64,000 bases of DNA from Candidatus Magasanikiibacteriota bacterium. GTDB taxonomy: Bacteria > Patescibacteriota > Patescibacteriia > Magasanikbacterales > UBA922. Numbering within the stretch: the stretch's first letter is position 1; every line of letters starts with the position of its first letter. Position numbers and translations under genes: made by a program. The notes beneath the pieces are model-generated. The model worked only from the letters and a program-made list of their open reading frames with translations. It was not told the DNA's origin and made no database searches. Location of the stretch: contig JBAQFA010000005.1 of NCBI GenBank assembly GCA_049287025.1, positions 1,671-65,670 of the forward strand. The letters are read 5' to 3'. This document shows, in pieces, positions 9,289 to 53,250 of the stretch.

Positions 9289-12200
9289 TTATATGAAAAC
9301 ATATCAGGAATTTTTAAACAATCAAGGCGAAAAGAAATGGCAAAAATATTGGGAAGACAATAAAATTTTTGAAACCACAGAATCTTCGGACAAGGAGAAA
9401 TTTTATGGTCTGATAGAATTTCCTTATCCATCAGGGGCTGGTCTTCATGTTGGTCATCCGCGGCCTTTTACTGCTATGGATGTGATTTGTCGTAAAAAGA
9501 GGATGCAAGGCAAGAATGTTTTGTTCCCAATTGGTTTTGATGCTTTTGGTTTGCCCACAGAAAATTTTGCTATAAAAACTGGTCGTCCGCCAGCCGAAGT
9601 GACAGCCGAGAATATTGCCAATTTTACGCGCCAGTTAAAGATGTTGGGTTATAGCTTTGCTTGGGATAGAGTAGTAGACACTACTGATCCAAAATACTAC
9701 AAATGGACACAATGGATATTTTTACAATTATTTAAACATGGTTTGGCTTATAAAAAAGCCATGCCAATCAATTGGTGTATTTCTTGTAAAATTGGTTTGG
9801 CCAATGAAGAAGTTGTTGACGGTAAATGCGAACGTTGTGGTGGACCAGTAGAAAAGCGCAACAAAGAACAGTGGATGTTAGCAATTACAAAATATGCTGA
9901 TAAATTATTGCAAGGTTTGGAAACAGTTGATTATATTCCTCAAGCCAAGATTCAACAGCAGAATTGGATTGGAAGGTCTGAAGGTATTAATTTTAAACAC
10001 AAAGTAAAAGGCATGGATTTGGAATTTGAAGTTTATGATTCAATCCCGCAAACTTTCATGGCTCAGACTTTTGTGATTATTGCTCCAGAACATCCTTATG
10101 TTTTTGAAATGGTGAAAGGTACTGAGCGTGAAAAAGAGGTAATGGCCTTTGTGGAAAAAATAAAAAATAAAAAAGTTGGCGGAAAATTTGATATAGATAG
10201 TGATATGGAAGGAATTTTTACTGGTTGCTATTCAGAAAATTATTTGGGGATTGGTCGTGATTTACCAATTTGGGTAGCAAGTTTTGCTTTAATGGATTAT
10301 GGCACAGGCATTGTCGGTTGTAGTGCTCATGATGAGCGAGATTATAAGTTTGCCAAAATGTATGATTTACCATTGCATCCAGTATTGTTCCCCAAAGACA
10401 AAGAGTTGGCAGAAAAAGTTCGTAGTACAGAAATATTTTATCGTGAATCAGATGGCTTGTTAGAAGAGCCAATTGATTTTAAAGGTAGAAAGTGGGATGA
10501 AGTAAGATCTGATATTATTCAATATATTGAAGACAAAGGTTTTGGTAAAAAAGCAGTACATTACAAACTTCGCGATTGGGTATTTTCTAGACAGCGTTAT
10601 TGGGGTGAACCAATTCCACTGGTTTATTGTGAGAATTGTGCTAATAAAAAACCAAAAATATTATATATTCATGGAATTTATGGTGGTCCAGATGAAAATT
10701 GGGTACCGTGGTTTAAAAAAGCAATGGAAAATAAGGGATATGAGGTTTTGACTCCAGAATTACCAGACTCAGACAAATTAGTTGATGAAAAAAAATGGAT
10801 TGAAATATTAAAAAATTTACCAATTGATAAGGATGATAAGTTGTTTGTGATTGGTCATAGCTATGGCGCTAGATTTGCTTGTAAGTTTATCGAAGAGAGT
10901 GGAATGAAAGTGAAAAAGTTAATCATGGTTGGACCAACTGGCCCAAGTCAAACTGAAAATAATTATGCCAAATTGCGTGAAGTTGGTTGTAGTGAAGATT
11001 CAATAAAAAGTGTACAAGAATTAAGCAAAGAAAATTTTGATTGGAAAAAATTAAATTCATTGATTAGTAATACAGTAATTTATTTTTCAGATGATGATCC
11101 ATTCATTCCGTTAACCATGGAAGAAAGTTATAAAGAATTAAAACATACTACGAAAAATTTTGTTGGTAAAGGCCACTTTAATAAAAGAGCTGGTGTTTTG
11201 GAATTGCCAGAATTGTTAGAAGAATTTTCTGATGTTAAAAGACAAAAAGTTTTAATTATTCATGGTTTTACTGGTAGAGCTGACAAAAATTGGATGCCTT
11301 GGATGAAAGAAAAATTAGAATTAGCTGGATTTGAAGTGAGAGTTCCTACTATGACCACTACTGATCATCCCGTAATGGAAAAATGGCTAGAAGAACTTTT
11401 GCCACTAGTAAAAGATTTTGATGAGAATGATGTCATTATTGGACATAGTATTGGTGGTAGTACCGCTTTGCATTTGTTAGAACAAATGGAAAATAAAATA
11501 GGTCATCTGTATTTGGTAGCACCAGCAGTAGGAGAATTGGCCGATGAAGAAATTAAAAAGAAAAAAGCTAAAAAGCCAGAGAAAGATTATGACATGGTTA
11601 GGGCTTTTTGGGAAATGCCTATCATTTGGAATAAGATTTTGAAAAAAGTTAACCAGGCTAATGTATTGTATTCTAATACTGACGAAAGTATAAAATCATA
11701 TGGACATGAATTATGGCCTAATGATTGGCAAATAAAATTTTTAGGTAATCACGGTCATTTTGTGGATAAGGAGTATGACGTGTTGTTTGAAAATTTTGTA
11801 ACGGCCAAAAATACTGGCTGGATTCCACTTCCAGAATCAGAATTACCATTGGAATTACCCAAGGTAGAAAAATATGAACCAACTGACAATGGTGAGTCAC
11901 CTTTGGCTGTGATGACTGATTGGGTTAATACCAAATGTCCAGTGTGTGGTGGAGAAGCGAGACGTGAGACTGATACTATGCCAAATTGGGCTGGGAGTTC
12001 TTGGTATTATCTTGCGTATACAATGATGAAAGAAAAAAATGGTGAATATGTTTGGGATAGAGCCAAAATGGATTATTGGAATCCAGTGGATTGGTATAAT
12101 GGGGGAATGGAACATACGGTTTTACATTTGTTGTATTCTAGATTTTGGAATGAATTTTTGTTTGATATTGGACTCGTGCCAACTAGTGAACCATATAAAA

Positions 12201-18032: not shown

Positions 18033-18719
18033 ATGAATAATTATAAAATCATTTCTGTCGGTGGTTCAATTATAATTCCTAAAACTGGATTTGATATTAA
18101 ATTTTTGAAAAAGTTTAGAGAATTAATTTTGGCTCGCGTCAAAGCTGGTGAAAAATTTATTTTAGTTATTGGTGGGGGAGCGACATGTAGACTTTATCAA
18201 GAGGCTCTGGCAAAGACGGTCAAAACTAGCAATGAAGATTTGGATTGGTTAGGGATTTACACCACTTGGTTCAATGCCGAGTTTGTAAAATTAATGTTTA
18301 TCAATTATGCTTTTAACGAAGTCATTAAGGACCCAACTAAAAAAATCAAAACTAATAAGCCAATTATTATTGCTGGTGGTTGGAAGCCGGGTTGTTCTAC
18401 TGACAAAGATGCTGTTTTATTAGCTAAAAATTTTGGGGCTAAAGAATTAATCAATTTGTCCAATATTGAATATGTTTTTGATAAAGATCCAAATAAATAT
18501 AAAGATGCAAAAAAGATTGAGAAAATAAACTGGTCAGATTTTAGAAAAAATATTGTTGGGTATAAGTGGGTACCAGGTAAAAATGTGCCATTTGACCCTA
18601 TGGCGAGTGAGTTGGCGGAAAAAATGTGGTTAAAAGTTAGTATTTTGTGTGGAACTGATTTAGTTGAAGTTAAAAAGGCTTTAAGTGGAAAAAAGTTTAA
18701 AGGGACAATAATTGTGTAA
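18033..18719 (+). CDS. pyrH: Amino-acid-kinase family protein, archaeal-type UMP kinase-like
   Basis: IISVGGSII...FILVIGGG...AGGWKPGCSTD...NIEYVFDKDP pattern typical of archaeal/short UMP kinases. At 228 aa it lacks the bacterial GGGNIFRG loop. Confidence 0.65.
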   Translation: MNNYKIISVGGSIIIPKTGFDIKFLKKFRELILARVKAGEKFILVIGGGATCRLYQEALAKTVKTSNEDLDWLGIYTTWFNAEFVKLMFINYAFNEVIKDPTKKIKTNKPIIIAGGWKPGCSTDKDAVLLAKNFGAKELINLSNIEYVFDKDPNKYKDAKKIEKINWSDFRKNIVGYKWVPGKNVPFDPMASELAEKMWLKVSILCGTDLVEVKKALSGKKFKGTIIV

Positions 18720-18721
18720 TT

Positions 18722-18843
18722 CCGAGTGAGTGAAACGAAAGAGGAATCCTTTTTAGTATCTTTAAACATTGCAATTCAATAATGCGAATTTAGAAGTATA
18801 GGAAAGGGATCCCTCGTCGTTCCTCCTCGGGATTGTGAACGAC
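18722..18843. repeat. Palindromic miniature element (GAGGAATCC...GGGATCC family), intergenic copy
   Basis: GAGGAATCCTTTTT-(AT-rich core AAACATTG...)-GGAAAGGGATCCCTC, then GTCGTTCCTCCTCGGGATTGTGAACGAC hairpin. Same family as the copies at 35021, 39752, 48333, 49728 and 50626. Confidence 0.65.
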
Positions 18844-28060: not shown

Positions 28061-28070
28061 GCAAAAATAC

Positions 28071-28325
28071 TTTTAGGGAAGCGGGGGGAGCCTCCCGGGT
28101 CATTTCTGACCCTCTGGTGGTTCTTTGTCGCGGTCGATAAGATCGATCCCGCCGTGAAAGCTGTCTGTGACTGCGCCAAAGACGCGGTCTAGGCATGTTT
28201 GGAGCAACTCCATTCTTTTATTTCGGGCACGAGCTCGATCTTCAAGGCTGAGCGTAGCCCAAGCCTCCAAGCACTCGCTCATCTTTCTTCCTCGCAAAGA
28301 GACCTCCTTCCCCCCTAAAAATATT
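28071..28325. mobile_element. GC-rich ~255-bp island bounded by imperfect inverted repeats, almost filled by a 60-65-aa ORF
   Basis: Left TTTTAGGGAAGCGGGGGGAGCCTCC and right GGAGACCTCCTTCCCCCCTAAAAA (RC: TTTTTAGGGGGGAAGGAGGTCTCC). GC is ~55% against a ~34% background. Confidence 0.35.
28100..28282 (-). CDS. Hypothetical small protein (60 aa from the ATG; 65 aa if the upstream TTG is used) encoded within the GC-rich island
   Basis: MSECLEAWATLSLEDRARARNKRMELLQTCLDRVFGAVTDSFHGGIDLIDRDKEPPEGQK. SD GAGGAAG is 4 nt upstream of the ATG. The ORF spans the island between its inverted repeats. Confidence 0.3.
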   Translation of the reverse strand: MSECLEAWATLSLEDRARARNKRMELLQTCLDRVFGAVTDSFHGGIDLIDRDKEPPEGQK

Positions 28326-28331
28326 TTTAGG

Positions 28332-28775
28332 TTATTTTATCAATATTTTTCTTCCTTTGTCAAGATGTTCAATTTTAATCCTAATCACTTTTTTGCTACT
28401 CAATAACTTGGAAATTTTCTCCGGCCACTCAATCAAACAAATTGTATCTGGGTTCCCTAGATAATCTTCAATCCCGATTTCAATTAAATCTTTTTCATCC
28501 TCAAGTCGATAGGTATCAACGTGCACTAATCTTTGAATCTTTGAATCTTTGAATCTTTGAATTTCGTGAACGTTCATCAGTGAAAAAGTCGGACTAGTAA
28601 TATTTTTTTTAATGCCAAAATATTCAGCAATACCTTTGGTTAGAGTCGTTTTGCCAGCACCCAGATTACCTTCAAGTAAAATAATATCACCAGGTTTAAA
28701 TTTTGAAGCGATGCTTTTACCGAGATTTATAGTTTCTTGTTGTGATTTTGTTTTGTATAGCATAGTACACGTCAT
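28332..28775 (-). CDS. tsaE: tRNA threonylcarbamoyladenosine biosynthesis protein TsaE (YjeE ATPase)
   Basis: P-loop GNLGAGKTTLTKGI and the conserved TSPTF motif, 147 aa. Contains an 8-bp tandem repeat (aatctttg x4 at 28528-28563), read in frame as FKDSKIQR. Confidence 0.85.
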   Translation of the reverse strand: MTCTMLYKTKSQQETINLGKSIASKFKPGDIILLEGNLGAGKTTLTKGIAEYFGIKKNITSPTFSLMNVHEIQRFKDSKIQRLVHVDTYRLEDEKDLIEIGIEDYLGNPDTICLIEWPEKISKLLSSKKVIRIKIEHLDKGRKILIK

Positions 28776-29127
28776 CCCCGCGAAGGCGGGGATCTTTTAT
28801 CGTAAATTCCACAAATCTTTCCATTCAGGATTATTTTTTTCAATTAATTTTATTTTCCATTCCCTATTCCATTTTTTCAAACATTTTTCTCTATGAATAG
28901 CATCGTTAATGCTTCGATATTCTTCAAAATAGACCAACTTATGAACCCAATATTTTTTTGTAAAGCCATCAATTATTCCTGTTTTATGTTCATTTGTTCT
29001 TCGATCTATGTTGTTTGTTACACCAATGTATAATACGCCATATTTTTTACTTGCTAAAATATAAACATAAAATGTTTTTTCCATACAGGCGAGTTTGTAT
29101 AAGATTCCCGCCTTCGCGGGAATGACG
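28761..29127. mobile_element. Compact mobile-looking cassette: a GIY-YIG nuclease gene flanked by 27-bp terminal inverted repeats
   Basis: Left end CGTCATCCCCGCGAAGGCGGGGATCTT (28761-28787). RC of the right end: CGTCATTCCCGCGAAGGCGGGAATCTT (29101-29127). Each terminus is itself palindromic. Inserted between glyA and the tsaE start. Confidence 0.5.
28797..29084 (-). CDS. GIY-YIG nuclease family protein (stand-alone URI domain, ~95 aa)
   Basis: FYVYILASKKYGVLYIGVTNNIDRRTNEH ... KKW: GIY...YIG core with conserved Arg and Glu. Confidence 0.85.
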   Translation of the reverse strand: MEKTFYVYILASKKYGVLYIGVTNNIDRRTNEHKTGIIDGFTKKYWVHKLVYFEEYRSINDAIHREKCLKKWNREWKIKLIEKNNPEWKDLWNLR

Positions 29128-29144
29128 TAATTGATGGTGTTCCA

Positions 29145-30395
29145 TCAAACAAGTTCAGGATATAAAGGAAATTTTTTGGTTAATTCAATTACATCAGCCT
29201 TAATACTTTTAAGTTTGGTTTCGTCTTGCCAATTCATAATTCCCTCGTTCATCCAATTGGCAATAATTTCCATTTCCGCTTCTTTCATACCACGGGTAGT
29301 AAGAGCCGGAGTACCAAAACGAATACCGGAAGGATCCATGGGACTGCGTGGATCATCAGGAATCATATTTTTATTTAGGGTAATACCAGCAATATCCAAA
29401 GCGATTTGGGCTTGTTTACCAGTAATACCTTTGGAAGAAAATAAATCTACTAATAAAAGATGATTGTCTGTACCACCAAAACATAATTTATAACCCCACT
29501 CAGAAAACTTTTTTTCCAATACTTTAGCATTAACTTTAATTTGTCTGGAATATTCTTGAAATTCTGGTTCCAGTGCTTCTTTAAATGATACGGCTTTGGC
29601 AGCAATATTATTTTCATGTGGTCCACCTTGAAGCCCTGGAAAAACTGCTTTATCAATCTGTTTGGCAAATTTTTCTTTGCACATAATCATACCTCCACGT
29701 GGTCCACGCAGAGTTTTGTGTGTAGTCGTAGTCACCACATCAAAAATTGGGACGGGGTTATTCATTTGTTTGCCAGCAATCAGTCCACCAATATGGGCGA
29801 CATCGGCCATAGTGATCGCCCCAACCTCATCAGCAATCGCTTTTATTTTTTCATATTCAATTTCGCGTGAATAAGCGCTGTAGCCCACGAGAATCATTTT
29901 TGGTTTATGTTCCAGAGCCATCTGACGCAAATTATCCAAATCAATCTTTCCCTCAGCATTAGTTTTGTAACGAATGAAATTAAACACTTTTGCCATGTAA
30001 GTCACAGGATGACCATGGGTTAGATGTCCACCGTGAGACAAATCCAAACCAAGAATTGTATCACCTGGCTCCATTAGACCAAAATATACCGCAATATTCA
30101 TAGGAGCACCAGACAGGGGTTGAACATTGACATGTTCGGCACTGAATATCTGCTTGGCACGATCAATCGCTATGCCTTCAATCGTATCAATAAATTCACA
30201 ACCACCATAATATCTTTTGCCAATATAACCTTCGGAATATTTGTTGGTTAAGACTGAACCTAAAGCTTCTAAAACAGCGAGAGAAACAAAGTTTTCTGAT
30301 GGGATCATTTCTAGACCTTGCTCTTGGCGGGCAAGTTCATTGGTTATGGCTTGTTGAATTGTTGGATCGTAGTTTTTTAATAAAATTTTGTTCAT
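29145..30395 (-). CDS. glyA: Serine hydroxymethyltransferase
   Basis: PLP-lysine region TTTHKTLRGPRGG and SHMT signature GLDLSHGGHLTHG, 416 aa. Confidence 0.95.
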   Translation of the reverse strand: MNKILLKNYDPTIQQAITNELARQEQGLEMIPSENFVSLAVLEALGSVLTNKYSEGYIGKRYYGGCEFIDTIEGIAIDRAKQIFSAEHVNVQPLSGAPMNIAVYFGLMEPGDTILGLDLSHGGHLTHGHPVTYMAKVFNFIRYKTNAEGKIDLDNLRQMALEHKPKMILVGYSAYSREIEYEKIKAIADEVGAITMADVAHIGGLIAGKQMNNPVPIFDVVTTTTHKTLRGPRGGMIMCKEKFAKQIDKAVFPGLQGGPHENNIAAKAVSFKEALEPEFQEYSRQIKVNAKVLEKKFSEWGYKLCFGGTDNHLLLVDLFSSKGITGKQAQIALDIAGITLNKNMIPDDPRSPMDPSGIRFGTPALTTRGMKEAEMEIIANWMNEGIMNWQDETKLKSIKADVIELTKKFPLYPELV

Positions 30396-34002: not shown

Positions 34003-35637
34003 TTAAGCCAGTTTTTTAATCATGTAAGTTTGTTGTAATTTGTATCCTAATTTTCGATAATAACCTCGCACTCCCACTCCGGAAATCACAGCAATTTTTT
34101 TATATTTATTTTTTTTACTAATTTTTTCAGCTTCTTCAACTAATTTTTTACCTAAACCTTTGTGTTGACTGGCAGATTTATTTTTTGTACCCAGTTCAAG
34201 TAGTTGTCCATAAGTGTGGAGTTCTCGTATATATGCTAACGAATTATCATCAAGAAGACGTAAACGTAAAAAACCATAAACAACCTGTCTTTTTTTATCT
34301 TCGTAACTCAAAAAATATTCTGTCCCACCTGTTGTTTCATATTTATCAATAAAAAGTCTTAAGTCTTCAGTTTTAAGTCTTAAGTCTGGCTGGTGTCCAA
34401 CCTCACGACAGCGTAAGCATTGGCATTCCAAACCCCTTTTGGCCATTTCTTTTTTAAGGTTTTGTCGGAGATTGGTAATCATGTTTCCACCCATAATTTC
34501 ATTGTCAGGAATATCACGAATTAAACGAGATATTCGGCAATAGCGTGGCGTACTGGTTTTCATTTCAATTAACGCTTCAAATAATTTTTTTTCTGAATAT
34601 GGTTTGTATTTTTTTTCTTTGTACCATTGATATAGGGCAGCAGTTTTTATCACTGTGCAGGGATAAATTTTTACCATATCAGGTTTAAAGCCTGGATCAG
34701 TAAATAATGACTTATACATTTCCACATCATGCTTGGCCGTAGTACCAGGGAGATCGGGCATAAAATGTAAATCAACTTTAAAACCAGCTTGACGTAACAA
34801 AGTCATAGCATCTTTAAATTGCTGTACAGTGTGTCCACGTCTGACTAATTTTAAAATTTTATCATCTGGTGCTTGCAGACCTAGTTCAATTCTAGTACAA
34901 CCCATTTGGCGCATGTGATTGATTGTCTCTGGGGTTATACAGTCGGGGCGGGTTTCTAAAGTTAGACCGATTATCTTGTGGCGGGCGTGACGGTCATTAT
35001 AACTTTGTTCTTTTTTTAAATTCCGAAGGAGCGAAGCGACTGAGGAATCGCTTTTTAATGCATTTGAAGAGACTTTGAAAAGGGATCTCTCACTTCGTTC
35101 GAGATTATTTGCCGCCCGGAAAGATTCTAAAATAAACCAATATTGATATTTTAGAGGATAAACATTCCACGATCCGCCTTTAATAATATATTCAATTTTG
35201 TCAGTCGGGTGGCCAGAAAGTTTTAGCATTTCTATACGTCTCACCATTTGCTCATAAGGATCAAAACATAGAGCCAAGGCTCTGGCAGCCGCTGGTTCGC
35301 TGGCCAAATAGCTTTTTGGCATTCTAGCCTCAGTCGGGCAATAAACGCATTTTCCAGGGCAATTATAGGGCTTACAGAGGGAGGTGACAACGGCTACACC
35401 AGAGAGAGTGCGTATATCAGCTTTACGCATGAATCGTTCTAAGGTTTTGTCCTGCTTGACTCTTTTCATTTTTAATAAATTTTGGTAAGCTTGTAGCAGG
35501 CTACGATTAGAAATTTGGTTGATGGAGAGTTTATTACAGACTTTTCTTCTGATATCATCAAACTCAGCCCTGGTAGTGGGTTGAAAGGAAATAATTTTTA
35601 ATATTATATTTTCTAGATTTTCCATAGATAGATACAC
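34003..35637 (-). CDS. elp3: Elp3-family radical SAM / GNAT protein (tRNA uridine-34 modification-type elongator protein 3 homolog)
   Basis: Radical SAM cluster CPGKCVYCP, a central SPL-like region and a C-terminal GNAT (KGLGKKLVEEAEK...GYYRKLGY). The likely start is the ATG at 35625. Carries an in-frame palindromic element at 35021-35105. Confidence 0.85.
   Translation of the reverse strand: MYLSMENLENIILKIISFQPTTRAEFDDIRRKVCNKLSINQISNRSLLQAYQNLLKMKRVKQDKTLERFMRKADIRTLSGVAVVTSLCKPYNCPGKCVYCPTEARMPKSYLASEPAAARALALCFDPYEQMVRRIEMLKLSGHPTDKIEYIIKGGSWNVYPLKYQYWFILESFRAANNLERSERSLFKVSSNALKSDSSVASLLRNLKKEQSYNDRHARHKIIGLTLETRPDCITPETINHMRQMGCTRIELGLQAPDDKILKLVRRGHTVQQFKDAMTLLRQAGFKVDLHFMPDLPGTTAKHDVEMYKSLFTDPGFKPDMVKIYPCTVIKTAALYQWYKEKKYKPYSEKKLFEALIEMKTSTPRYCRISRLIRDIPDNEIMGGNMITNLRQNLKKEMAKRGLECQCLRCREVGHQPDLRLKTEDLRLFIDKYETTGGTEYFLSYEDKKRQVVYGFLRLRLLDDNSLAYIRELHTYGQLLELGTKNKSASQHKGLGKKLVEEAEKISKKNKYKKIAVISGVGVRGYYRKLGYKLQQTYMIKKLA
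35021..35105. repeat. Palindromic miniature element copy (GAGGAATCG...GGGATCT variant) inserted in-frame in elp3
   Basis: TTCCGAAGGAGCGAAGCGACTGAGGAATCGCTTTTT ... AAAAGGGATCTCTCACTTCGTTCGAG. Encodes ERSERSLFKVSSNALKSDSSVASLLRN in the protein. Confidence 0.55.
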
Positions 35638-39445: not shown

Positions 39446-40943
39446 AAGAATCAATCATTCCTCTAAAACCATGACTCCCACAGAAAACAATTACATCGCC
39501 AGATTTAGTGTTATTGATTAAATAATTTATTAATTCAGTATCATCATCAATATATTTGGCATTATTGTGGGTCTTACTAATTACCTCGGCTAGTTTTTGT
39601 CCGTCCATGACTTCTGGTTTATTGGGATCTTGTTTAATCGCTGTTAGACGAGGAATAATGACTTCGTCAGCACTGACAAAAGCATTGTCATAGCCAGGAA
39701 TAGATTCTATTTGGCGATTACCGCCGTTTGGTTCGAAGACTGCTATGAGTTTTGAGGAAGGGGATCCTTCGACTTCATTCGTTTGACTGGCGTCAAACTC
39801 ACTTCGCTCAGGATGACGTGTATAGATATTTTTTAAGCTAGCTAAAACCGCTTCAGCTTTTTTTGGTGAGTGAGCGATATCATCAAATACAATAACATCA
39901 TTATCACATCGTTTTTCCAATCTTCTTTTTATATTTTTAAAACTGATAATGGCTTTTATAATATTGGCTGGTTCAATACCAAGCTCATGAGCAAAAGCAA
40001 AACATCCAGTCATATTGTCGGCCATGTAGTCGCCTAGATTTGAAGTAATTAGGTTATAGGTTTTAGGTTTTAGGTTATCATTTTTTGGTTTGACAACTAT
40101 ATCAAATGATAGTCCGTTTTTTGAAGTTTTTACATTGGTGTACTGATAATCATTGTCTGGTGATTTTCCGTATTTAATGATATGTGATATGTGGTATGTG
40201 ATGTGTGATACTTTTTCACTAGTCACAATCATTCCATTAGCAGGAATGTTGTTTACAAGTGTTTGAAACGCATCAACATAAGATTGTTCAGTCGGATACA
40301 CATCAGCATGATCCCAAACCACAGATGTCAAAAGTAAATGAGTGGGGGAATAGTGGGCAAATTTTGGGCCATTGTCCCAGCGCGCGCTTTTGTATTCGTC
40401 GCCTTCAATTACGGAGTAATTGCCACGTGAACCCGAAGGGTTTTTACGTGGCGGATTGTCTCCCAAACTCGCAGACGGTATCCCATTTAGACTAATACCA
40501 CCAAACATATAAGTCGGATCAAAATTATTTTGTTTCAAAATCCAAGTAAGTAGTGATGAACTGGTAGTCTTACCATAAGTCCCAGCGCAAACAATTGAAT
40601 TCTCTTTGACAAAAAATTCTTTGATCACTTCAGGATAAGATTTATAATTTAATTTATTTTCTTGTACATAGAGCCATTCAGGATTATTGGAACTGGCGAC
40701 ATTGCCAACTACGACTAGGTTTCCATCTTTTCCTCCTTCGCTAAAGCTACGGAGGACACGGTCGGGATGCCAACCAGTATAATAATCAACGCCACTTTCT
40801 TTGAGATAAGTAGAAATGGGTGGATATATTCCCACATCACTACCAGTCACTTCATAACCCGCTTTTTTCAATGCTAAAGCCAGAGCCGACATGGCGACTC
40901 CACAGATACCGATGAAGTGGATTTTTATTTTGTCATGTAACAT
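39414..40943 (-). CDS. Mur ligase family protein, Mpl/MurC-like
   Basis: IHFIGICGVAMSALA and GSDVGIYPPISTYL (Mpl-like), with P-loop GTYGKTTSSSLL. Carries in-frame repeat insertions at 39752-39818, 40048-40079 and 40190-40230. Confidence 0.8.
   Translation of the reverse strand: MLHDKIKIHFIGICGVAMSALALALKKAGYEVTGSDVGIYPPISTYLKESGVDYYTGWHPDRVLRSFSEGGKDGNLVVVGNVASSNNPEWLYVQENKLNYKSYPEVIKEFFVKENSIVCAGTYGKTTSSSLLTWILKQNNFDPTYMFGGISLNGIPSASLGDNPPRKNPSGSRGNYSVIEGDEYKSARWDNGPKFAHYSPTHLLLTSVVWDHADVYPTEQSYVDAFQTLVNNIPANGMIVTSEKVSHITYHISHIIKYGKSPDNDYQYTNVKTSKNGLSFDIVVKPKNDNLKPKTYNLITSNLGDYMADNMTGCFAFAHELGIEPANIIKAIISFKNIKRRLEKRCDNDVIVFDDIAHSPKKAEAVLASLKNIYTRHPERSEFDASQTNEVEGSPSSKLIAVFEPNGGNRQIESIPGYDNAFVSADEVIIPRLTAIKQDPNKPEVMDGQKLAEVISKTHNNAKYIDDDTELINYLINNTKSGDVIVFCGSHGFRGMIDSLIKGLKSRKG
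39752..39818. repeat. Half-copy of the palindromic miniature element inserted in-frame in the Mur ligase gene
   Basis: GAGGAAGGGGATCCTTCGACTTCATTCGTTTGACTGGCGTCAAACTCACTTCGCTCAGGATGACG. Encodes ERSEFDASQTNEVEGSPSS. Confidence 0.5.
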
Positions 40944-48155: not shown

Positions 48156-49005
48156 GTCTTCTTATAAAAATTTCTTTAGCTTTCTTCGCATATTCCTGCA
48201 TTTGTGGTTCTGACCAGTTTTGTTCTAATAGATTTTTATTTGGATCAGTAATAGTGATTGTTTCTTGTCTCACGCCGTGGTTATAAAGACCATCAGTAGG
48301 ATATTGAAATGAATGGGTGTATTCAATCACAATTCCGAACCCCGAGGGTGAGGAATCCCTTTTTTGTGTATTAAAAGTTGTATTACTATTTACATTGTTT
48401 GAAGAGTTGGAAAGGGATCCACCCTTACGGGTATCTTCGACCTCGTTGCGACTCGGGATTACCGAAGAAACCAATAATACATGATTATAATCTTGTTTTG
48501 GACCAGCACCCATCATAACAATTAGATCTCCAGGCTGGATATCTTTTAGATTTATTTCTTTAGAATTTATATTATTATTAAAAGTGGAGACACCAGTATT
48601 TTCGGCTGATCTAAATTGAGAAATTAATTTGCGAATGGGATTTTTTATCCATGGCCGGTGAATATATTTTTTTAGTCCGCCTAAATTTCTGGCTTTCAAT
48701 TCTGTATCTAATACATGATAAATTAGACCAGAACAATCAATCCCTAGATTGTGTTCAATTAAAAATTTTTTTATTTGTTCGGCATTTAATTCGGCTAGTT
48801 TTATTTTTTCGCGTAAAGAAAAGATCGTGGCTTCTTCCGCAATATCTTCTGGGCTACCTTTGCCAATCAAGACGCGCAAAGCTCCACGAATATTTTTTCT
48901 CCGATTATTAAAATAGGGAGTAGTTATGTTTTTTTCTCCTATTTTGAGATTAAGGTATTGATCAATAACTTTTTGTGCTTGTGAGGATAATTGTTCCATT
49001 GTCAT
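48139..49005 (-). CDS. NlpC/P60-like (papain-fold C40 peptidase/amidase-like) cytoplasmic protein
   Basis: LGIDCSGLIYHVL resembles the catalytic Cys motif DCSGLV of C40 peptidases, with downstream His. No signal peptide. Carries the palindromic element at 48333-48468 in-frame. Confidence 0.5.
   Translation of the reverse strand: MTMEQLSSQAQKVIDQYLNLKIGEKNITTPYFNNRRKNIRGALRVLIGKGSPEDIAEEATIFSLREKIKLAELNAEQIKKFLIEHNLGIDCSGLIYHVLDTELKARNLGGLKKYIHRPWIKNPIRKLISQFRSAENTGVSTFNNNINSKEINLKDIQPGDLIVMMGAGPKQDYNHVLLVSSVIPSRNEVEDTRKGGSLSNSSNNVNSNTTFNTQKRDSSPSGFGIVIEYTHSFQYPTDGLYNHGVRQETITITDPNKNLLEQNWSEPQMQEYAKKAKEIFIRRLKALV
48333..48468. repeat. Palindromic miniature element copy inserted in-frame in the NlpC/P60-like gene
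   Basis: TTCCGAACCCCGAGGGTGAGGAATCCCTTTTTT-(AT-rich core)-GGAAAGGGATCCACCCTTACGGGTATCTTCGACCTCGTTGCGACTCGGGATTACCGAAG. Encodes GGSLSNSSNNVNSNTTFNTQKRDSSPSGFG. Confidence 0.65.
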
Positions 49006-49009
49006 ATTG

Positions 49010-50962
49010 TTATTTGTTTGATGTTTTATTCAAAATTTTTTCTGTCAGACCTTTTGGTAATAATGTTATGTTTGGCAATTCTTTTAGATCTACCCAGACT
49101 AGCTTGTAAGAATTATTAGTAGTGCTTCTCTCTCTTTCTTCGTCACCTAGCTTTGGTTCACCAGAAATATTCTCCGCAAAATAATAATATTCGTCACGGC
49201 CATTAATATTAAAACAAAGTGGTATTTGTTCAGGAATAGTAAAATCAAGATCAGTTTCTTCTTTGCCTTCACGTTTGGCTGTGGCTAATATATTTTCATC
49301 AAAATCTTCTTTGGTTCCACCAGGTGGAGTGAAAAAATGCTGGGAAAATTTTTGTCTTTCTATTAATAAAATTTTGCCGTCTTTAATAGGTAAAATAGCA
49401 CCTCGGGGCAAGTCCCAACCCACACCTTTTTGGGTGACAGTAATAAAGTCAATTATTTTTAAACCATTGAGACTTAATTTATTATGCGCTTCCATAATAG
49501 GATAAAGAGTTTGCGTGCGCATCAGGTCAGCATTTGGTTTGGTATTATTGTATTTTATAATATTGAAATCAGGTCGTTTGTTGTATTTTGGTTCGTGAAG
49601 TGAAGGAATTTCTTTGGTAACTCGTTGAATAATTTGCGCGCCATCTTGGATTTTGATTAATGTTTGATTTTCCAAATTTATATCTAATAACGCCATGAGG
49701 TGGGATTCGAATGTGGTTATTTGGTTTGTCATCCCGAATCCCCCGACGAAGGGGGTGAGGGATCCCTTGTCTTTGGATTTAAACATTGTATTATTACTAA
49801 TTCCATTGTTTAATGTTTGGGAAAGGGATCCCCTCCTCGGAGGATCTTCGACCTCGCCCTGTGTCGGGCTCGGGATGACAAGTGATTGAAGTTGTGATTC
49901 GTAAGTCGTTGATGCTGGTTGTCTGGCATTAATTTCAATTAAATATAGTTTGCCATTTTTTCCCGCCTTCGCTGAAGCTTCGGCGGACAAGTCATCAACC
50001 ACAACATCAACTCCAAACAAACCTTTCCAACCTTGTGATCTTAATTTTTCGCCAATATCATTTACAATTTTGTTGTATTGTTTTATTTGATCTTCATTTA
50101 AATATTTATTAGCAAATGACCAATCATTGCCAATGGTAGTAAATTTATTATCAGTAAAAGGTTTGAGTCCAGTAATTTGATAGCTAATATTACCAACTAA
50201 AATTTTATTTTTTGTGACGACATTGTTGCTAGTAAACATTGGTCCAGAAATATATTCCGTGATTCTAACTGGGCGATCGGGAAATTTTTCTTTAATCTCA
50301 TCCAGCTGACTCTCTGATTCAATCAAAATAGTGCCAAGGCCAGTATGAGCGCGGTTGAATTGGATAATAAAAGGCTTACAAAGCTCACGAGGCTTGCTAC
50401 CTGCCTGCGCAGGCAGGGGCTCACAAGGCCAAACGATATTTTTACATAAATCAACTCTGTGTTTAGGTAAATATTTTTGTAATTCCCCAAGCCATTCTAG
50501 TCCAGAGATTTTTTCTTCTATTTTGTTTGACAGTTCGGCTGGTGGGTTGAGTAGTTTCCAATTATTTTCCTGACAGATTTTTTCTATTTGAGTGGTGGGT
50601 TTGAAGACTACCACGGTAAGTTCATTCCGATCCGCCGATGAGGTGGAGAGGAATCTTTCGGAGTTATTTGTTGTTGTGGTATGATTGTCTTTTGTAATTT
50701 GTTTGTAAAAGGCTTCGAAAGATCCCTCGTCAGTCAGTCGTCTGACTTCCTCGGGATGAACCAACAATTCTAACAATTCCCAAGTATCCAGCTGTTCATT
50801 ACTTTCAATCAAAAGGACATTATCATATCCTTCAGCTACAGACTTGGCAAAAGGCGTAGAATTTGAGATAATATGATAACCTGGGGTATTTAAATTCAGC
50901 CCTAAAGCCCGCTCAATATCGCGGGTGACGTAAATGATTGGGTTTTGGGTTAGATCTATCAT
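49010..50962 (-). CDS. ATP-grasp (RimK-like) ligase fused to a C-terminal NUDIX hydrolase domain
   Basis: ATP-grasp blocks PFIIQFNRAHTGLGTILI and GLFGVDVVVDD...GKLYLIEINARQPAS. C-terminal Nudix box GGTKEDFDENILATAKREGKEETDL. The likely start is MIDLTQNP at 50962, since the track ORF to 51049 overlaps the divergent gene. Carries three in-frame palindromic insertions. Confidence 0.7.
   Translation of the reverse strand: MIDLTQNPIIYVTRDIERALGLNLNTPGYHIISNSTPFAKSVAEGYDNVLLIESNEQLDTWELLELLVHPEEVRRLTDEGSFEAFYKQITKDNHTTTTNNSERFLSTSSADRNELTVVVFKPTTQIEKICQENNWKLLNPPAELSNKIEEKISGLEWLGELQKYLPKHRVDLCKNIVWPCEPLPAQAGSKPRELCKPFIIQFNRAHTGLGTILIESESQLDEIKEKFPDRPVRITEYISGPMFTSNNVVTKNKILVGNISYQITGLKPFTDNKFTTIGNDWSFANKYLNEDQIKQYNKIVNDIGEKLRSQGWKGLFGVDVVVDDLSAEASAKAGKNGKLYLIEINARQPASTTYESQLQSLVIPSPTQGEVEDPPRRGSLSQTLNNGISNNTMFKSKDKGSLTPFVGGFGMTNQITTFESHLMALLDINLENQTLIKIQDGAQIIQRVTKEIPSLHEPKYNKRPDFNIIKYNNTKPNADLMRTQTLYPIMEAHNKLSLNGLKIIDFITVTQKGVGWDLPRGAILPIKDGKILLIERQKFSQHFFTPPGGTKEDFDENILATAKREGKEETDLDFTIPEQIPLCFNINGRDEYYYFAENISGEPKLGDEERERSTTNNSYKLVWVDLKELPNITLLPKGLTEKILNKTSNK
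49728..49879. repeat. Palindromic miniature element, best-preserved copy with perfect 10-bp outer inverted repeats, in-frame in the ATP-grasp-NUDIX gene
   Basis: GTCATCCCGAATCCCCCGACGAAGGGGGTGAGGGATCCC-(AT-rich core)-GGGAAAGGGATCCCCTCCTCGGAGGATCTTCGACCTCGCCCTGTGTCGGGCTCGGGATGAC. Encodes EVEDPPRRGSLSQTLNNGISNNTMFKSKDKGSLTPFVGGFG. Confidence 0.7.
50388..50440. repeat. Short GC palindrome (CCTGCCTGC|GCAGGCAGG) inserted in-frame in the ATP-grasp-NUDIX gene
   Basis: GCTCACGAGGCTTGCTACCTGCCTGCGCAGGCAGGGGCTCACAAGGCC. Encodes LPAQAGSKPREL. The core is shared with the 35658-35680 palindrome. Confidence 0.5.
50626..50758. repeat. Palindromic miniature element copy inserted in-frame near the 5' end of the ATP-grasp-NUDIX gene
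   Basis: TCCGATCCGCCGATGAGGTGGAGAGGAATCTTTCGG-(AT-rich core)-CGAAAGATCCCTCGTCAGTCAGTCGTCTGACTTCCTCGGGATGAA. Confidence 0.6.
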
Positions 50963-50994
50963 AGTGAGGGTAATTATACTTAAAAAAATAGTTT

Positions 50995-53250
50995 TTGACA
51001 AGCAATATGGACAGTATGGATTTGAAAAAACACGATAGAGTTGATTCATATCAAATTGAGTTAGAATTAGCTTTTTCTGTTTGGTATCAGGGAGTAAAAA
51101 CTGGACGTAAAGATTTTGGAGTAGGCTGGCTAAAGAAAAATGGATTTAATAATCTTGCTGTCTGGTGTGAAGAAAATAGTGAACAGTTTGTTGAATGGAA
51201 AGTCTTAAGAGAGCTAAAAGAGGCTTTTTTGGTTTGGCATTCTTTGCCAGAAGCAGGCCGTGGTAATTTTAATGCGACTTGGTTGCAACAAAATGGATTT
51301 TCTCGTGTAGATAAAGGGCTGCGCAAGTTAGATGGTGTTGAAGTTGTCCAAAAAAGTGATTCAGCGGAATTAAGAAAAGCTTACACTGTCGACAAGGTTG
51401 ACTGGACAGAGGAATCAGCCGTAAAAAAAATGGATGAAATGTATGAAGTTTTTTTGAAGGAAAAAGATAATAAATTTGATAAAAAAGGAAAACCAATACG
51501 CTTCAATAGATATTGGCTTAAATCAAAAGGTTTACCATCATTGGTAAGGTGGGCAAATACGCAGCCGGGTGGTTTGGAAGTATTGAACACCAAGTGTAGA
51601 AACAAAGAAGTTGCTAATTTATTTGAAAGAAGTAGGACGGAGTGGAATGAGACTTTGGCAGTTGCTGATTTAGAAGTTGCTTATAAAGAATGGCTGGACG
51701 AGCCGGCGGATACGCGAGGCAATTTTAATCAAAAAAGGATACAAAGAAAACATTCAGGACTGACAAGTTGGGTCTGGGATAATGGCGGAATTGATAAGTA
51801 TGTTGCTTTATCAAAAAATGATTCTTTAAGGGCTGCATTTTCAAAAGATAGAATATTTTGGGATGATAAAAGAGTTTTAGCTGAATTAGATAAAGCCTTT
51901 GAAAAATGGAAGTCGGTTGTAGAGGTGGATGGTAGAACTGGTAAACAAAGGAAATTTAGTGCTTTTTGGATTCGAGATAATTATAATCAAGGTTTAAGCA
52001 GATGGATTAGTATGCACAGTGGATTGAATCATTGTGTTGCTTTAAGTACTAATCAAGAATTAAGAAAATATTTAAATTTAGATAACCAAGTTGTCACAAC
52101 TGTGACTGTTGAAGGCTTGGTAGATAAACCAGAAGAGGTTGAAGAAAAAACCAATGAACCAGGAGAAATTCATGTTGGAGTTTTTCCTAGTGAAATGATT
52201 GATCTTTCGGGTATTGGTTCCAATTTACTTCCTCAAATAAGGGTTGCGAGTCTTCAGGAAAGGGAAGATAGAGGATCAACAGATGTTGATTTGTCACAAA
52301 TGACAGCTGATCCAAATCCGTTACAGAAATTACGTTTTGATATGGCTACAGCCAGACAAAGTGGTGTCTGGGATGATGAATTAATAAAAAGATATATAGA
52401 ATTGCATTCTTATTTGCCAGATTTTATTTTTCACGGTCTTAGCGTAGAACATATTGTGGAATTAGCCACAGCTGGCAAGATAAAAACCCCAAAGGCTGTT
52501 TTGTCCGTCGGTGGAGGGGCTTATGGGGAATTAATAGCTTGGCAAAGAAAATTAAAAGCAGAGGCGCCAATGGTTTTTAATTTGGACAGTTCTGCATTAA
52601 TGTTGGAAATGGCTAAGCCTGTTTTATCCGAGAAATATAGTATTCAGCAAAACGATTTTAATGGCGTGGTAGGTGATATGAGAAATTTTAAGGGTGATTA
52701 TTTGAGTAATTTTAAACAGGGTGATTTTGATTTAATAGAATGTTCAGCGTTAGACAATTTAACTGAAGCACAATTGCCAAAATTTGTTGAAGAAATAGTT
52801 GATGTTTTACAAAATGGACAAATGGTACAGTTGATTGCCAGAAAGCCAATACCAAATGCTGTTTGGCACATTTTGGAAACTATGGGTTGTGTGATACTAA
52901 CTCCACCAAATGCCAAATTAGATGCAGATCTTAGCGGTGTAGTAGGTGGGGATGTAAAAAAGAGAATTAAACAAAAGTTGCGAGATGGGGGCGGGTTTTA
53001 TTTATTGGCGCAAAAATTTGAAAAAACAATTAATCCAGATGATAATAAGAAAAGGTTTTTAGATCAATTATCGCAAGCACAAGATATGGAGACCGGAGAT
53101 CTTGGTTTGTTATTATTAGATTTAGCAAAATTGTATCCAAATTATGGCGATATTCCAGAGGAAGAATTGGCAAGAGTTGGATTTCGGCGAGAAATTATTA
53201 AAGTGAATAAAAAAGGTGCAAGTAACATAGTACGAATTGTCAAAGTTTAA
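50995..53250 (+). CDS. Large hypothetical protein with five or more ~50-aa N-terminal tandem repeats and a C-terminal class I methyltransferase-like region
   Basis: Repeats of the form hxxAhxxW...G[RK]xxF...xWL..NGF...L..W. The C-terminal region has VLSVGGGAYG (motif I-like), NLDSS and DLIECSALDNL. 751 aa. Confidence 0.55.
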   Translation: MTSNMDSMDLKKHDRVDSYQIELELAFSVWYQGVKTGRKDFGVGWLKKNGFNNLAVWCEENSEQFVEWKVLRELKEAFLVWHSLPEAGRGNFNATWLQQNGFSRVDKGLRKLDGVEVVQKSDSAELRKAYTVDKVDWTEESAVKKMDEMYEVFLKEKDNKFDKKGKPIRFNRYWLKSKGLPSLVRWANTQPGGLEVLNTKCRNKEVANLFERSRTEWNETLAVADLEVAYKEWLDEPADTRGNFNQKRIQRKHSGLTSWVWDNGGIDKYVALSKNDSLRAAFSKDRIFWDDKRVLAELDKAFEKWKSVVEVDGRTGKQRKFSAFWIRDNYNQGLSRWISMHSGLNHCVALSTNQELRKYLNLDNQVVTTVTVEGLVDKPEEVEEKTNEPGEIHVGVFPSEMIDLSGIGSNLLPQIRVASLQEREDRGSTDVDLSQMTADPNPLQKLRFDMATARQSGVWDDELIKRYIELHSYLPDFIFHGLSVEHIVELATAGKIKTPKAVLSVGGGAYGELIAWQRKLKAEAPMVFNLDSSALMLEMAKPVLSEKYSIQQNDFNGVVGDMRNFKGDYLSNFKQGDFDLIECSALDNLTEAQLPKFVEEIVDVLQNGQMVQLIARKPIPNAVWHILETMGCVILTPPNAKLDADLSGVVGGDVKKRIKQKLRDGGGFYLLAQKFEKTINPDDNKKRFLDQLSQAQDMETGDLGLLLLDLAKLYPNYGDIPEEELARVGFRREIIKVNKKGASNIVRIVKV

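Follow-up and report, generated by a model that had tools for sequence, protein, structure and literature searches.

Between glyA and tsaE of a Magasanikiibacteriota genome lies a small stand-alone gene for a GIY-YIG nuclease, bracketed by inverted hairpin repeats, and the same DNA carries GC-rich miniature elements embedded in open reading frames (ORFs). The locus raises two questions: to what kind of genetic unit the nuclease gene and its repeats belong, and whether this unit is the partner of the miniature elements. We analyzed a window of 64 kb (the whole stretch of DNA, at its full length), which is AT-rich (about 34% GC), together with homologous loci from other genomes.

The association of a GIY-YIG protein with a dispersed hairpin family, of which an earlier note on this DNA did not know, has already been published as the Ssn/NTS system (PMC11893778). 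Chenal et al. (2025, Nat Commun 16:2388, PMC11893778) defined the NTS as CGTCATTCCCGCGMAVGCGGGAATCYRG, with a degenerate SRM pattern, and described ssnA as encoding a 94-aa, single-domain GIY-YIG protein (cd10448), with SRMs present on both sides of the gene in 42% of homologues. SsnA requires the hairpin to be single-stranded DNA (ssDNA) for binding and makes its cut a few nucleotides to the 5′ side; neither double-stranded DNA (dsDNA), RNA, nor the reverse strand is cut, and site-specific, ssDNA-only cleavage has been demonstrated for four homologues. Cutting depends on the GTC just 5′ of the stem, and binding on the C just 3′ of it. The hairpin loop may be replaced or extended, and activity is lost when the stem sequence is changed with its structure kept. 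The substitutions Y6A, Y17A, and E64A each abolish cleavage by the Neisseria meningitidis SsnA, and the authors likened the NTS-ssnA-NTS arrangement to an insertion sequence and to RAYT/REP (PMC11893778).

Organization of the glyA–tsaE locus

The unit occupies about 360 bp of the glyA–tsaE intergenic space and has the same orientation as both neighboring genes, which lie outside the element. The features of the locus are as follows:

28332–28763, minus strand: tsaE (Pfam TsaE, E 8.5e-40), the downstream neighbor
28769–29128, minus strand: the SRM-ssn-SRM unit (inverted repeat I1)
28770–28797, plus strand: downstream arm CGTCATCCCCGCGAAGGCGGGGATCTTT, a forward NTS/SRM hairpin on the strand opposite the gene, matching the NTS consensus at 24 of 28 positions
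28797–29084, minus strand: ssn, encoding a 95-aa protein of the KKWNRxWK subfamily (Pfam GIY-YIG, PF01541, E 6e-14, residues 5–78)
29101–29128, minus strand: upstream arm CGTCATTCCCGCGAAGGCGGGAATCTTA, a forward NTS/SRM hairpin on the coding strand, matching the NTS consensus at 26 of 28 positions
29145–30395, minus strand: glyA, serine hydroxymethyltransferase (Pfam SHMT, E 2e-155), the upstream neighbor

The inverted repeat (28769–28799 and 29098–29128) is 31 nt long, 90% complementary, and the second longest in the 64-kb window, and the sequence CGTCATCCCCGCGAAGGCGGGGATCTT at 28770–28796 directly abuts the ssn stop codon. The Pfam match confirms the 95-aa GIY-YIG ORF of the earlier note, which had also located the right arm correctly at 29101–29127; its left arm, given as 28761–28787, was 9 nt away from the true position, 28770–28796. 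The placement between glyA and tsaE likewise stands, but the start codon of tsaE probably has to be moved: the ATG at 28775 falls within the left arm, and the true start is most likely 28763 (MLYKTK; 143 aa, as in the annotation of L001), 7 nt past the arm.

A search for direct repeats that could represent a target-site duplication, conducted at the cassette, at gene-less hairpin doublets, and at miniature element d (see below), found none. The TT/AA flanks that had been pointed to as a possible duplication were rejected: these bases belong to ATCTT, with which the motif is conserved at its 3′ side. Across the whole window, no Rfam family matched at gathering thresholds and no tRNA was found. 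Relaxing the Rfam thresholds yielded nothing but sub-threshold matches to FtrB (Francisella sRNA B, RF02748) on both arms, at 28742–28852 on the plus strand and 29028–29148 on the minus strand (26–31 bits vs the gathering threshold of 66), which suggests that this sRNA model contains an SRM-like hairpin.

Two further features were observed in the vicinity of the cassette. The tsaE–maf intergenic region contains a 217-nt GC-rich island (28069–28285; ~58% GC vs 34% for the genome) that has neither Pfam nor Rfam matches, and a 65-aa ORF without assigned function (28100–28297, minus strand) lies in it. The tsaE–maf spacing is 312 nt in the window vs 35 nt in the close relative L083, indicating a second lineage-specific insertion beside the cassette. 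The tsaE coding sequence itself includes a perfect 8-nt tandem repeat, AATCTTTG, in 4.4 copies (28528–28562); the unit is not a multiple of 3, so that slippage would shift the reading frame. The copy number is equal in L001 and L002, two assemblies of the same population, and the repeat is lacking in L083 and L085.

A single-domain GIY-YIG protein of wide distribution

The GIY-YIG domain was the only domain that Pfam detected in the 95-aa protein, which has no DNA-binding domain and none of the DDE, HUH/Y1, or serine/tyrosine recombinase domains; an NCBIfam search returned no match. Residues Y8, Y19, and E66 do not vary among 29 homologues (alignment A1), and their spacing of 11 and 47 residues is that of the catalytic Y6, Y17, and E64 of the N. 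meningitidis SsnA. Judging from this spacing, we infer that Y8, Y19, and E66 are the counterparts of the three catalytic residues. A scan of the window for ssn genes found this one copy in 64 kb.

More than 7,800 homologues were recovered at E ≤ 1e-5. The best 120, which are 65%–79% identical to the query, belong to Caldiserica, Saccharimonadales, Margulisbacteria, Latescibacterota, Ignavibacteria, Campylobacterota, and other taxa, and such identity across phyla points to horizontal spread. In some homologues, the gene calls are over-extended at the N or C terminus and translate the hairpin itself, e.g., as SFPRRRESI.

The arms as probable cognate hairpins of the Ssn type

The two arms differ from each other twice, by C/T at arm position 7 and by G/A at position 22, and these positions pair inside each arm's own hairpin (C–G vs T–A), so that both arms keep an 8-bp stem without mismatches and a GAAG loop. 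When folded as DNA, the downstream arm has a predicted energy of −9.7 kcal/mol (z −3.9) and the upstream arm −8.9 kcal/mol (z −4.2). The published SRM regular expression has a sole match in the window, the downstream arm (mean of 0.07 in shuffled sequences), and the upstream arm misses it at the last degenerate base alone. The expression is narrow, matching 35 of the 79 homologous loci described below and missing both the CCTGC-stem and the GA-type variants, and a covariance model (R1) was built for this reason and trained solely on hairpins from other organisms. R1 recovered the upstream arm with 33.8 bits (E 2e-6; 29099–29129, minus strand) and the downstream arm with 32.7 bits (E 3.8e-6). 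Neither the SRM expression nor R1 found canonical SRM copies beyond the two arms in the 64-kb window; genome-wide dispersal of the motif, in hundreds of copies, is typical of high-copy Ssn hosts.

To place the arms in a wider context, 80 loci were fetched from species-representative genomes, with counts made on 79 of them. When the 120-nt flanks on the two sides of each homologous gene were compared for their best inverted repeat, most loci yielded one and the same motif, TGTCATTCC-stem-loop-stem-GGAATCCAG. Of the 79 loci, 66 have a GTCA-plus-hairpin motif within 200 nt of the gene on at least 1 side and 36 have it on both, and the loci with a flanking hairpin span Verrucomicrobiota, Ignavibacteriota, Omnitrophota, Proteobacteria, Patescibacteria, Planctomycetota, and other phyla. 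The orientation is that of the window cassette in the both-sided loci, the forward motif lying upstream on the coding strand and downstream on the opposite strand. In the alignment of 79 hairpins, no variation is seen at G4, T5, C6, A7, or the C that directly follows the stem on its 3′ side, and double compensatory changes are found at 7 of the 8 stem pairs. The paired fraction of 94% in this alignment is circular, because the hairpins were pre-selected for pairing, a bias of which the flank inverted-repeat result is free.

The nearest homologue, in L091 (79% identity), is located in an unrelated genomic context and has the same arms. The 3′ tail of the motif reads ATCTT(A/T) in the window cassette, a variant common to L085 and to L091, whose arms have ATCTTA, unlike the ATCYRG of the NTS. 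Gene-less inverted NTS-type doublets were observed in intergenic regions of these two related Patescibacteria (L085, 2867–2938; L091, 2544–2611), with the hairpins 6–10 nt apart; these doublets are REPIN-like minimal derivatives of the cassette.

The locus resembles the described Ssn/NTS system in its single-domain GIY-YIG protein of ~94 aa with the same catalytic residue spacing and in the position of the gene between inverted 28-nt hairpin motifs with conserved GTCA on the 5′ side and ATC on the 3′ side, and it differs in its host, a bacterium of the candidate phyla (Magasanikiibacteriota). By its architecture, motif match, and residue spacing, the locus very probably belongs to the Ssn family as a typical SRM-Ssn-SRM unit.

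The cassette is polymorphic within the glyA–tsaE operon

We compared the glyA–tsaE junction of the window with those of related genomes. In L083 (GlyA 98% identical; ~88% nucleotide identity), the two genes are separated by 99 nt containing neither ssn nor an SRM; in L085, an 89% relative, glyA and tsaE overlap and the cassette is absent; and L086 and L088 show other arrangements, again without the cassette. At this junction, the relatives without ssn have no such hairpins either. Intergenic DNA of L083 and L085 is too diverged to align with that of the window, and the exact insertion point against these two genomes is not mappable. The absence of the cassette at the relatives' junction, combined with the location of the nearest homologue elsewhere, identifies it as an insertion rather than a fixed gene. 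Fixation at this locus had been set beforehand by the earlier note as the finding that would count against its reading; the cassette is missing in all 4 of these relatives.

In-frame miniature elements and their GA-type ends

The window also contains GC-rich miniature elements of 110–150 bp, whose ends are GA-type hairpins and whose core is AT-rich. These elements lie in frame within ORFs and are translated, e.g., as VIPS...GSLS...N-rich...GFGMT peptides. The elements and the two terminal modules of element d are as follows:

18716–18836: miniature element a
near 35017–35110: miniature element g
39764–39817: right end of miniature element b
48329–48462: miniature element c
49728–49879: miniature element d
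49728–49764, plus strand: left module of element d, GTC-ATCCC-GA-(inner hairpin)-GA-GGGAT-C (R1 17.3 bits, E 0.039)
49827–49879, minus strand: right module of element d, inverted, with the outer skeleton GTCATCCCGA...GGGATC (R1 14.4 bits, E 0.22)
50621–50760: miniature element e

A GA-type end consists of a 5-bp outer stem followed by tandem G·A/A·G mismatches and a variable inner hairpin. The terminal module (N5)(C/T)CCGA...GAGG(G/A)ATC occurs 7 times in the window vs 0.02 expected. Element d, the start of which had been quoted correctly at 49728 in the earlier note, is absent from all 7 homologues compared, including an orthologue of 83% identity, and the protein encoded by its host ORF (49010–51049) is ~100 aa longer than its homologues. 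The repeated module, the in-frame position, and the absence from homologues mark the elements as insertions. The ATP-grasp/NUDIX gene was also observed to contain short, GC-rich, palindromic in-frame inserts at 49961–50002 and 50373–50440, which encode DLSAEASAKAGKN and WPCEPLPAQAGSKPRELC, respectively, and are both missing from most homologues; the former contains GCGAAGGCGGGAA, half of an NTS-like hairpin, with GTCATC nearby.

The earlier note had suggested that the cassette is a possible autonomous partner of the in-frame miniature elements, which would be non-autonomous derivatives mobilized alongside it, and had based this on shared ends. The sharing is beyond chance as far as the outer skeleton is concerned. 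When hits are ranked by R1, the two ends of element d come directly after the cassette arms and have the same outward orientation, and the skeleton GTCAT(CCC..GGG or TCC..GGA)ATC has 4 copies in the window vs 0.01 expected, one in each arm and one at each end of d; this pattern was defined post hoc, and it agrees with the independently built R1. Element d further retains the critical GTC and C of the motif, whose loop is replaceable and extendable (PMC11893778), and the gene-less doublets of L085 and L091 indicate that MITE-like derivatives of the system do form. The subtype of the stem, however, differs. No GA-type end of the elements is matched by the published SRM expression, and a change in stem sequence abolishes SsnA activity even when the structure is kept (PMC11893778). 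The GTCA has been lost from elements a, c, e, and g, and the ends of element d fold no more stably than shuffled sequence, with the outer stem of the right module unclosed in the prediction.

The distribution of GA-type modules also argues against a partnership. A metagenome scan for GTCATYCCGA N{5,35} GAGGRATC matched at least 120 loci, mostly from high-GC bacteria and with many plus/minus doublets; some loci (e.g., L153, L167, and L173) have inner sequences near-identical to those of the window. These matches indicate that GA-type modules are a pan-bacterial repeat class that falls outside the published SRM expression. The scan set contained only 2 ssn-like genes in 606 kb (tblastn and HMM), so that adjacency statistics drawn from it are weak; both loci, moreover, were motif-ascertained. 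Around the 79 genes of the KKWNRxWK subfamily, to which the cassette protein belongs, no GA-type module was found within 250 nt, and 12 were found elsewhere in the same loci. By contrast, the 4 genes inspected from a sister subfamily, KGW(S/R/L)RxKK (KGWxRxKK), which is 48% identical to the window protein, all have GA-type modules at their flanks and lack NTS-type modules. Two of these genes (L134 and L142) were found via the motif; the other two, on plasmids of Spirosoma (L214) and Planktothrix (L215), were found via the protein and are hence unbiased with regard to the flanking motif. The gene in L215 is embedded among GA-type doublets of ~100 bp that have the architecture of the window's elements. 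This locus, on the Planktothrix agardhii plasmid NZ_LR882964.1 (18256–19716), places a KGW-type Ssn-like gene amid arrays of such doublets and between an MmeI-type restriction-modification gene and the DISARM gene drmA, that is, in a defense island. Finally, the cassette is missing at this site in L090, and the orthologous gene of this relative still has a GA-type element (10201–10232) whose GTCAT end is intact.

The absence of GA-type modules near KKWNRxWK genes and their presence around KGWxRxKK genes indicate that the cassette is probably not the autonomous partner of the elements. The model in which they are its non-autonomous derivatives, mobilized by its nuclease, is accordingly doubtful, and we consider it clearly unlikely; most likely, the miniature elements are cognate to a different Ssn subfamily.

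Relationship to known mobile and regulatory systems

With RAYT/REP-REPIN and IS200/IS605, the SRM-ssn-SRM unit shares a small gene between inverted, ssDNA-recognized hairpins, dispersed gene-less doublets, and the lack of a target-site duplication. It differs in its catalytic domain, which is GIY-YIG here and HUH/Y1 in those systems. To our knowledge, GIY-YIG enzymes form no covalent DNA intermediates and perform no strand transfer, so that a peel-and-paste mechanism cannot be assumed for the cassette. The UPF0213/YhbQ proteins are similar to the ssn product in size and fold, with PDB entries 1zg2 and 1ywl being its only solved relatives (E 5.5e-4 and 4e-3), but their sequence similarity to it is very low. 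We know of no hairpin repeats associated with UPF0213/YhbQ.

The GIY-YIG fold and the presence/absence polymorphism at one locus would also be expected of a free-standing homing endonuclease gene that enters cassette-free glyA–tsaE alleles through repair, once its product has cut their dsDNA; the inverted repeats would then be incidental. Homing endonucleases of the I-TevI type share with ssn both the catalytic fold and a sporadic, horizontally spread distribution; they recognize long dsDNA targets, whereas the Ssn target is an ssDNA hairpin, and sites of its own flank the ssn gene. Characterized GIY-YIG homing enzymes require a DNA-binding domain, which the 95-aa protein lacks, and the tested members of its family have no dsDNA activity (PMC11893778). 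In addition, homologues from many phyla, inserted at unrelated sites, are flanked by the same hairpin, and we regard homing as highly improbable. Alternatively, the operon might simply have REP-like or terminator stem-loops here, unconnected to the nuclease gene. This idea can draw on the abundance of GC-rich hairpins in this AT-rich genome and on the terminator-like appearance of one arm, but that arm is terminator-like on the antisense (plus) strand, and on the mRNA strand neither arm scored in a consensus scan, which found 0 terminators on the minus strand. Moreover, the unpaired GTCA and ATC flanks do not vary from phylum to phylum, inverted pairs of the motif are specific to the surroundings of ssn homologues, and relatives without ssn are devoid of the hairpins at the junction, which leaves this idea with almost no probability.

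Rickettsia palindromic elements are short, GC-rich sequences that lie in frame in protein-coding genes and are translated as extra loops. The miniature elements of the window resemble them by description and bear, in addition, GA-type Ssn-like terminal modules. Literature searches turned up no work connecting Ssn with Rickettsia palindromic elements and none on in-frame elements in candidate phyla.

Proposed model and implications

We propose that the locus consists of a gene for a stand-alone GIY-YIG endonuclease of 95 aa with an outward-facing cognate hairpin (NTS/SRM) on either side. On either strand, the forward motif is located at the 5′ end of the unit, which puts the predicted cuts just beyond its limits: near 28760–28768 on the plus strand and near 29131–29138 on the minus strand. 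In this model, the unit would be a gained or lost insertion in the glyA–tsaE operon of a Magasanikiibacteriota genome. Most likely, it would act as a hairpin-plus-nuclease module, either selfish or domesticated, with horizontal spread and an influence on ssDNA processing, be it in replication, repair, or the handling of incoming DNA.

A broader reading, which we advance tentatively and hold to be unlikely, is that Ssn nucleases mobilize a two-tier system, in which hairpin-flanked genes are autonomous and the doublets and 110–150-bp composites are not, or that the NTS-type Ssn of the window cross-reacts with element d through the GA-type ends of the latter. Under this two-tier reading, the GA-type composites of candidate phyla may insert in frame and be tolerated as extra surface loops; the cross-reaction may be regarded as its weaker form. 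If true, either form would amount to GIY-YIG-based ssDNA transposition, a mechanism not known for any Ssn.

As an SRM-Ssn-SRM unit, the cassette extends a family characterized in 2025 to a Magasanikiibacteriota genome and, as a clean case of presence/absence within an operon, supports the suggestion of Chenal et al. that NTS-ssnA-NTS is mobile-like. The MITE-like GA-type composites found in frame in genes of candidate phyla tie Ssn-type repeats to in-frame palindromic elements. The hairpin subtype (perfect-stem NTS-type vs tandem-G·A GA-type) seems to co-vary with the Ssn subfamily (KKWNRxWK vs KGWxRxKK), and this co-variation provides a testable specificity code for programmable ssDNA nucleases.
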